A DNA stretch of 64,000 nucleotides, taken from the NCBI RefSeq assembly GCF_988242995.1, contig NZ_OZ547043.1; one strand, written 5' to 3'. The notes below the pieces were generated by a model that worked only from the letters and a program-made list of their open reading frames with translations, ran no database searches and was not told the DNA's origin. The translations under genes and the position numbers were made by a program. Shown piece by piece: positions 10,394 through 12,507 of this stretch. Positions within the stretch are counted from its first letter, which is position 1. Each line of letters opens with the position of its first letter.

Positions 10394-10615
10394 ATGAAAA
10401 TTATCACCCGTGGTGAAGCCATGCGTATTCACCAACAACATCCGACATCCCGTCTTTTTCCGTTCTGTACCGGTAAATACCGCTGGCACGGCAGTGCTGA
10501 AGCGTATACCGGTCGTGAAGTGCAGGATATTCCCGGTGTGCTGGCCGTGTTTGCTGAACGCCGTAAGGACAGTTTTGGTCCGTATGTCCGGCTGATGAGC
10601 GTCACCCTGAACTGA
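10394..10615 (+). CDS. yeeT: DUF987 protein YeeT
   Basis: 73-aa ORF matching recalled YeeT sequence and position. Confidence 0.75.
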   Translation: MKIITRGEAMRIHQQHPTSRLFPFCTGKYRWHGSAEAYTGREVQDIPGVLAVFAERRKDSFGPYVRLMSVTLN

Positions 10616-10688
10616 GTGGGAATTCTGATGAGCAGAATTATCGCCACTACCGGACCATTCTTAGCCGATTTTCTGTAAGGATTTTATC

Positions 10689-11057
10689 GTGTCAGACACA
10701 CTCCCCGGGACAACACTTCCCGACGACAATCACGACCGCCCCTGGTGGGGGCTGCCCTGCACCGTGACGCCCTGTTTCGGGGCACGTCTGGTGCAGGAGG
10801 GTAACCGGTTGCATTACCTTGCCGACCGCGCCGGTATCAGAGGCCTGTTCAGCGATGCAGATGCGTACCACCTGGACCAGGCCTTTCCGCTGCTGATGAA
10901 ACAACTGGAACTCATGCTCACCAGCGGTGAACTGAATCCCCGCCATCAGCATACCGTCACGCTGTATGCAAAAGGGCTGACCTGCAAAGCCGATACCCTC
11001 AGCAGTTGTGGTTACGTTTATCTGGCTGTTTATCCGACGCCCGAAATGAAAAATTAA
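10689..11057 (+). CDS. cbeA: CbeA (YeeU) antitoxin of the CbtA/CbeA type IV TA system
   Basis: GTG start, 122 aa, MSDTLPGTTLPDDNHDRPWWGLPC matches recalled YeeU. Confidence 0.8.
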   Translation: MSDTLPGTTLPDDNHDRPWWGLPCTVTPCFGARLVQEGNRLHYLADRAGIRGLFSDADAYHLDQAFPLLMKQLELMLTSGELNPRHQHTVTLYAKGLTCKADTLSSCGYVYLAVYPTPEMKN

Positions 11058-11145
11058 CTCTCCAGAATAGCCTTCTGCTACGGCCTGGTGTTTTCACCAC
11101 GCCACTTTTCCATTTTTATATCTGCATATCAGGAAAATCTTCAGT

Positions 11146-11519
11146 ATGAAAACATTACCTGTATTACCCGGGCAGGCGGCCAGTTCTCGCCCGTCTCCTG
11201 TTGAAATCTGGCAGATACTGCTGTCCCGACTGCTGGACCAGCACTATGGCCTCACACTGAATGACACACCTTTTGCCGATGAACGTGTGATTGAGCAGCA
11301 TATTGAGGCAGGCATTTCACTGTGTGATGCGGTGAACTTTCTCGTGGAAAAATACGCGCTGATGCTACCGACCAGCCGGGATTCAGCGCCTGTACCCGCT
11401 CTCAGTTAATAAACAGCATCGATATCCTCCGGGCTCGCAGGGCGACCGGCCTGATGACCCGCGACAATTACAGAACGGTAAATAACATTACCCTGGGTAA
11501 GTATCCGGAGGCGAAATGA
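11146..11519 (+). pseudogene. cbtA: cbtA (yeeV) toxin gene, frameshifted
   Basis: N-terminal 81 aa match recalled CbtA, then the frame terminates at 11409; the CbtA C-terminus ([39 protein letters not shown]) is encoded in the -1 frame ending at 11519; span is 374 nt, one short of the expected 375. Confidence 0.65.
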
Positions 11520-11710
11520 TGACACTGGAAGCCGACAGCGTTAACGTACAGGCGCTGGATATGGGGCACATTGTCGTTGACATTGATGGTGTTAATATCA
11601 CTGAACTGATTAATAAGGCCGCTGAAAACGGTTATTCACTCCGCGTGGTGGATGACCGTGACTCTACCGAAACACCGGCAACTTATGCCAGCCCTCACCA
11701 GTTGCTGTAA
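11516..11710 (+). CDS. yeeW: YeeW
   Basis: 64-aa ORF whose ATG overlaps the expected cbtA stop; CP4-44 synteny. Confidence 0.65.
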   Translation: MMTLEADSVNVQALDMGHIVVDIDGVNITELINKAAENGYSLRVVDDRDSTETPATYASPHQLL

Positions 11711-12124
11711 GACAATGCAGTGATGCAGGGTATAGTGCCATTAACCACAGAAACAGCACTGTTGTCCTGTATTAAGCAGGCAAGAGAAGATGTCCTTACC
11801 CTGCGCCATCTGCAGCTTCTGCACCAGAACCGGTGAATCTCACTCAACAGGCTTCATTTCCCCTGACGCCAGCCTGAATACAGCTGGCGTTTTCATTTAT
11901 AAACAGAAAGGAAAACCGATAATAATGGAATGGACGCCCCGACCATGAAGCAACGGTAGGATATTACTGATAAACCTTCCAGTGGAGGTGCGTTATGGCC
12001 GTTTTAACGATTAGCATTGACCTGACAAAAAATGAATTCCAAATCCACGGTCTGGGTAGGAACAGAAAAATCTAAGCTCAGAAAACGGATTAAAGTAAGC
12101 GTCAACGGAGCACCGTATTGACGC

Positions 12125-12330
12125 TTATTTATTGGTGAGAACTACGTTCCATGGCAGGAGTTCGTCAACACGGTTGGAGGGCCATTCCGGCAGTATGCTC
12201 AGAATATGGCGCAGATACGCTTCCGGATCGATACCGTTCAGACGGCAGGTGCCTGCTTTTCCGGCAACAAGCAGGAATCTCAGTGCTGAAGCAGGAATTA
12301 GAGGTAAAAACGCCCTACCGGGCCATGAAT
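12125..12330 (-). pseudogene. C-terminal fragment of an IS66-family-like transposase
   Basis: Minus-strand frame reads ...GKAGTCRLNGIDPEAYLRHILSILPEWPSNRVDELLPWNVVLTNK-stop with no upstream start; resembles IS66 TnpC C-terminus from memory. Confidence 0.4.
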
Positions 12331-12507
12331 CACCCGGTCATTGGAGTAGTAACCAAAGCAGATTTAGCCAGCATGGAACAAATATCTTTGGTGAAAAGTT
12401 GGTTACGGGAAGCTGGAGCGCACAACGTGTTAGTAACCAGTGCAGTTAATAACAATGGAGTTACAGAACTTTTTGCCTTGCTGCATACAGAAGAAGGCTG
12501 TTGTTAA
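12289..12507 (+). pseudogene. yoeF: EutP/PduV-family GTPase C-terminal fragment (yoeF-like)
   Basis: Frame encodes ...HPVIGVVTKADLASMEQISLVKSWLREAGAHNVLVTSAVNNNGVTELFALL; no credible N-terminal part. Confidence 0.45.

Follow-up and report, generated by a model that had tools for sequence, protein, structure and literature searches.

The window, i.e., the complete analysed stretch of 64,000 nucleotides of contig NZ_OZ547043.1, is E. coli DNA and contains four genes in one orientation in the region 10394..11710. The first gene is yeeT (10394..10615, plus strand), which encodes a DUF987 protein and, according to the list of open reading frames, the annotation of strain N53, and the comparison with K-12, is intact and identical to its K-12 counterpart. 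It is followed by the antitoxin gene cbeA (yeeU; 10689..11057, plus strand), the toxin gene cbtA (yeeV; 11146..11519, plus strand), and yeeW (11516..11710, plus strand), which encodes a DUF5983_N protein according to Pfam and is also intact and identical to K-12. The cbeA gene was found to be intact, in agreement with a preliminary description of this DNA. It encodes a protein of 122 amino acids that matches the Pfam family CbeA_antitoxin (PF06154) with an E value of 4e-53 and differs from the K-12 protein by D109G, and the gene is likewise annotated by PGAP in N53 and S88. The toxin gene is situated directly 3' of cbeA in the same orientation, which is the layout of CbtA/CbeA type IV modules, and the spacer of 88 nt between the two genes is identical to that of K-12. 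A second copy of cbtA or cbeA was not found within the window by tblastn; S88-type genomes contain at least one further cbtA-like place outside this locus.

The closest characterized system is CbtA/CbeA (YeeV/YeeU) of the K-12 cryptic prophage CP4-44. Both occupy the same chromosomal site next to tmaR, yeeA, sbmC, and dacD, and both have the gene order yeeS-yeeT-cbeA-cbtA-yeeW. The yeeT gene, the cbeA-cbtA intergenic region, and yeeW are identical in both, whereas cbtA differs at two of 375 positions and the toxin of the window is truncated to 87 amino acids by a frameshifting deletion. Furthermore, genes for a GTPase, a dynamin family protein, an RdcB protein, and a patatin-like protein are present in the window instead of the K-12 genes flu and yeeR. 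This cargo is located upstream of the module (301..8236) and, in the annotation of N53, comprises a hypothetical protein, a GTPase family protein, a dynamin family protein, an RdcB-family protein, a patatin-like phospholipase, and two more hypothetical proteins. In S88, IS66 elements are additionally present further upstream.

Downstream of yeeW, island remnants are followed by the conserved genes tmaR (yeeX), yeeA, sbmC, and dacD. The run of remnants between yeeW and tmaR (11744..12507) consists of a DUF957 fragment (11744-11836) and a transposase fragment (12125-12262, minus strand), both annotated in relatives as incomplete pseudogenes, and a short EutP/PduV-family ORF (12325-12507). A 2026 paper proposed that the stretch after DUF5983/yeeW encodes a real domain that is joined via a programmed frameshift (PMC13294457).

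The cbtA lesion and its reading frames

Alignment with the K-12 genome (NC_000913.3) showed that the region 11146..11519 is the E. coli gene cbtA, with a length of 374 nt compared with 375 nt in K-12. The nucleotide sequences of the two genes have exactly two differences. The first is the deletion of one base, a G that is present at position 221 of K-12 cbtA, in the middle of codon 74 (CGT); the junction in the window is 11365/11366 (plus strand). The second is a G>A substitution at 11362 (plus strand; position 217 of K-12 cbtA), three nucleotides upstream of the deletion, which changes codon 73 from GTG to ATG (V73M). Thereby, the single-base deletion and the span one nucleotide short of 375 that had been noted beforehand were both confirmed. 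The site of the deletion had been correctly predicted to lie within 11365..11375, but the second difference at 11362 had been overlooked.

In frame 0, the ORF list shows an ATG at 11146 and a TAA stop codon at 11407-11409, which define a remaining ORF of 87 amino acids (11146..11409, plus strand). Its product (protein label P0002) comprises residues 1-72 of CbtA, M73, and an out-of-frame tail of 14 amino acids. The agreement with CbtA thus extends over 72 residues, or 73 if V73M is counted, and not over about 81 as had been thought. Translation of the -1 frame (start 11145) yields exactly residues 75-124 of CbtA, and this remnant (11367..11519, plus strand) ends with the original TGA stop codon at 11517-11519. 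The preliminary description had therefore placed both ends correctly, with a frame-0 stop at 11409 and the C-terminus in the -1 frame up to 11519. tblastn aligned residues 1-73 of CbtA to 11146-11364 with 98.6% identity; the match in the other frame, at 11367-11516, comprised residues 75-124 with 100% identity. The Pfam domain CbtA_toxin (PF06755) is split in the same way: profile positions 1-73 were found in frame 0 and positions 75-112 in the -1 frame, with scores of 127 bits for the ORF of 87 amino acids (cut-off 25) and 50 bits for the -1 frame piece. The match to the family is thus significant, but no single frame of the window contains the whole domain (1-112), whereas K-12 CbtA covers positions 1-112. 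The full-length CbtA expected in the preliminary description was hence not mistaken, as the profile comprises 112 positions and full length is the norm of the family.

A separate translation of the C-terminal part was considered and rejected. The sole ATG in that frame, at 11464, would give rise to only 21 amino acids, and no ORF of at least 30 amino acids is listed there.

Production of a near-full-length toxin at a low level by programmed -1 ribosomal frameshifting or by transcriptional slippage was also evaluated. The two frames overlap at about 11329-11409, and this overlap includes the motif GAA AAA T (A-run 11348-11352), which might allow a Lys-tRNA to pair again after a shift to the -1 frame. 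However, inspection of 11329-11409 revealed no canonical X XXY YYZ heptamer but only this non-canonical motif, GAA in the P site would not pair correctly in the -1 frame, and efficient transcriptional slippage would require a longer run than five A. Moreover, the same A-run is present in the intact K-12 allele and is therefore not an adaptation to the deletion. A significant stimulatory RNA structure was not found in the region 11340-11430: its minimum free energy of -21 kcal/mol compares with -17.3 +/- 3.0 kcal/mol for shuffled sequences (z = -1.25), and 25 of 200 shuffles folded as well. Lacking both a slippery heptamer and a significant downstream RNA structure, a programmed frameshift was rejected, and recoding in general is extremely improbable.

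The start codon of yeeW overlaps the original stop codon of cbtA (ATGA at 11516-11519), and yeeW has its own GGAGG motif at 11507-11511. Because the frame-0 stop codon now lies 107 nt further upstream, ribosomes terminate before they reach this overlap, and any translational coupling between cbtA and yeeW is lost.

Prevalence and haplotype of the deletion allele

Next, the distribution of the allele was quantified with exact words of 61-62 nt spanning the site in 5,426 complete E. coli genomes. The deletion in combination with G at 11362 was present in about 1,504 records (exact 61-mer), and the intact K-12 form in about 1,800 records (exact word). The deletion together with A at 11362 was restricted to five full-length records, i.e., S88, MS7163, CEA601S, N53, and N62, so that the substitution occurs only in a small S88-like group. 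The counts are approximate, as the band of at least 99% identity may take in a few partial-length matches (e.g., H76), and the frequencies are rough, as the collection is biased to laboratory K-12 strains and outbreak clones. In public protein databases, the identical product of 87 amino acids with M73 was found on 86 contigs, and the form with V73 on at least 1,000 contigs.

The label 'cbtA, frameshifted' was found in the RefSeq/PGAP annotation of all ten carriers that were fetched, among them CEA601S, O157:H7 PV15-279, N53, S88, ATCC 11775, O104:H4, YZMc10-2, SX23, and W2-5; in N53 it has the same coordinates as the gene of the window. The genes with this label in O157:H7, O104:H4, ATCC 11775, and many other genomes share with the window the deletion, the span of 374 nt, and the flanking haplotype, and in the three named genomes cbeA and yeeW are intact as well. 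Their allele differs from that of the window by a G at 11362, which leaves V73 in the product of 87 amino acids, whereas the window has A and thus M73. In contrast, both the deletion and A at 11362 are common to the window and the pseudogenes of S88, MS7163, N53, N62, and CEA601S. S88 and N53 additionally have an A>G substitution at 11336 (N64S in cbtA), whereas the window and CEA601S retain the common A. Literature searches on frameshifts or pseudogenes of cbtA/yeeV retrieved no published description of this allele.

Single-base indels are the commonest type of sequencing and assembly error, and the preliminary description had mentioned a sequencing indel as possible; the gene would then be intact in the source organism. 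The deleted G is not part of any homopolymer (GTGC[G]TACC; GTGCGTACC > GTGCTACC), and the same deletion is present in the approximately 1,504 independently assembled complete genomes, carries the RefSeq label, is accompanied by the same extra SNP in S88, MS7163, N53, N62, and CEA601S, and is linked to two flanking polymorphisms. An error at this site can therefore be dismissed for practical purposes. The cbtA deletion is a real inherited allele that is already annotated and common. The product of 87 amino acids, which had been mentioned as a possible natural variant, is one in the narrow sense of a common natural allele.

The flanking polymorphisms were identified when the 2.2 kb that extend from yeeT in the direction of tmaR were compared among 15 genomes. 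Nine of these carry the deletion (the window, S88, N53, O157:H7, ATCC 11775, O104:H4, YZMc10-2, SX23, and W2-5), and six have an intact gene (K-12, Nissle, BEN2908, rl0044, AH19E045, and AR_0089). This set of genomes is of limited size and contains some redundancy, S88 and N53 being almost identical to the window. At 11725 (plus strand), G was found in 9 of 9 carriers and A in 6 of 6 intact genomes, and at about 12593 (plus strand) an extra T was present in all nine carriers and absent from all six intact genomes. The lesion thus occurs in independent genomes and is linked to neighbouring polymorphisms, as is characteristic of an inherited pseudogene. This perfect linkage indicates that the deletion resides on one haplotype and probably had a single origin. 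The carriers span the phylogroups B1, B2, and E, and the haplotype has therefore been widely inherited or exchanged.

The occurrence of the allele in lineages as distant as O157:H7, O104:H4, S88, and ATCC 11775 could also be explained by a mutational hotspot at which the same G was lost repeatedly. However, recurrent loss would not account for the perfect linkage to 11725-G and the indel at about 12593 in nine carriers versus six non-carriers, and the site contains neither a repeat nor a homopolymer at which slippage would be favoured. We regard repeated loss as very improbable.

Three of the intact genomes showed dense patches of substitutions. In Nissle and AH19E045, about 25 sites are changed in a patch that covers yeeT-cbeA and extends into the beginning of cbtA (equivalent to 10579..11271), and in BEN2908 five sites are changed within 28 nt of the 3' part of cbtA (equivalent to 11417..11444 of the window). 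These patches are suggestive of gene conversion, with paralogous modules as donors.

The surroundings of the module were also compared. No genome in the collection was identical to the first 20 kb of the window; the best matches, S88 and N53, deviate from it at only two positions in these surroundings of 20 kb, namely 7615 and 11336. The change at 7615, which is unique to the window and located outside the module, is a nonsense change in an island gene for a hypothetical protein of 227 amino acids (7127..7810, plus strand), with A for G converting TGG to TGA (W163*). All 41 of 41 complete genomes with this gene have G at this position (one mismatch each to the 61-mer of the window), and the change is therefore either private to this genome or an error. 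In CEA601S, the region 3161..3616 contains an antirestriction gene that is cut short and fused to a truncated DUF987 (yeeT) gene, and yeeS is missing. In this genome, the island with the cbtA allele described here has undergone an additional deletion.

Consequences for the truncated toxin

A solved structure of a CbtA relative was not found in the PDB at E <= 0.01. In an AlphaFold2 single-sequence model of K-12 CbtA, which has moderate confidence (mean pLDDT 66), helices were predicted at residues 18-34, 46-55, 59-70, 85-100, and 106-113, with a loop at residues 71-84. A published trRosetta model of CbtA has a flexible H5-H6 loop at T75-T84 (PMC8828653). The frameshift lies where this loop begins, and both predicted helices that follow it, out of five in the AlphaFold2 model, are removed. 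Most likely, this truncation abolishes or strongly weakens the globular toxin of 124 amino acids.

Nevertheless, the product of 87 amino acids might be a functional variant, either attenuated or directed at a single target, that binds FtsZ and/or MreB via its N-terminal two-thirds, or it might be maintained as a decoy. It retains both R15 and F65, the published contact residues at which substitutions eliminate the interaction with MreB and FtsZ, respectively (PMC5624674). The ORF has stayed open at 87 amino acids in many forms (236 members in the 90% cluster), of which the commonest is the one on at least 1,000 contigs, and a single haplotype has reached a high frequency across distant lineages. 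Also, in the work of Tan et al. 2011, C-terminally truncated YeeV reportedly still caused cell elongation. On the other hand, two of five predicted helices and 39 of the 112 positions of the Pfam profile are lost, and small globular proteins seldom fold after such a loss. The high frequency can be explained by hitch-hiking with the island. In addition, the further changes in cbtA among the carriers are all non-synonymous in frame 0, i.e., L38Q in ATCC 11775, N64S in S88 and N53, and V73M in the S88 group, which fits relaxed constraint; further non-synonymous changes were also present in the protein variants P0004, P0005, and P0015 of 87 amino acids. An accelerated decay of cbtA was not detected among the nine carriers, with four segregating sites compared with three in cbeA.

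Taken together, we consider a functional variant unlikely, and slightly more so a truncated CbtA that is still alive, with the N-terminal helices that contain R15 and F65, and either binds the cytoskeleton in an attenuated or single-target manner or serves as a dominant-negative decoy that counters paralogous toxins. If it were true, selection on the truncated CbtA would help to explain why one frameshift haplotype is present in about a quarter of sequenced E. coli from distant lineages. An active truncated product would represent a minimal fragment for FtsZ/MreB binding and would be modestly interesting for the design of peptide inhibitors.

Proposed history of the allele and meaning for E. 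coli

The best explanation, which we hold to be very probable, is an inherited loss-of-function allele of cbtA with retention of the antitoxin. The toxin decay in redundant TA islands that was suggested by the preliminary description is a reasonable reading of the cbtA gene of the window. In the proposed sequence of events, a G in codon 74 would have been deleted once, on one haplotype of a CP4-44-like island adjoining tmaR/yeeA/sbmC. This haplotype would have been passed on both vertically and horizontally, and it is now present in roughly one in four sequenced E. coli genomes, among them O157:H7, O104:H4, S88, and the type strain. Past residue 73, translation proceeds out of frame and ends at a stop codon 14 codons further on, yielding a product of 87 amino acids in which only the first three of five predicted alpha-helices are left. 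The S88-like lineage would later have gained the G>A substitution at 11362, which is expected to be neutral because cbtA was presumably already a dead gene.

The inactivation of the toxin with retention of the antitoxin frame resembles the orphan antitoxins and decayed toxins of other chromosomal TA loci. Unlike the general orphan antitoxin pattern, the module is of type IV, and CbeA reportedly opposes the toxin through the bundling of FtsZ and MreB and does not bind the toxin itself (PMC3827094), so that its retention need not depend on the toxin. Probably, CbeA was kept intact after the loss of the toxin because it acts on FtsZ and MreB and not on the toxin, and it could thus still guard against paralogous toxins.

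Beyond correct annotation, the finding matters little. Many E. coli strains, including O157:H7, O104:H4, K1 meningitis strains such as S88, and the S88-like strain of the window, are devoid of a full-length CbtA at this locus. In contrast, the full-length protein is encoded by K-12, in which the toxin was characterized. Therefore, the physiology of K-12 CbtA should not be transferred to those strains unless the allele has been checked.
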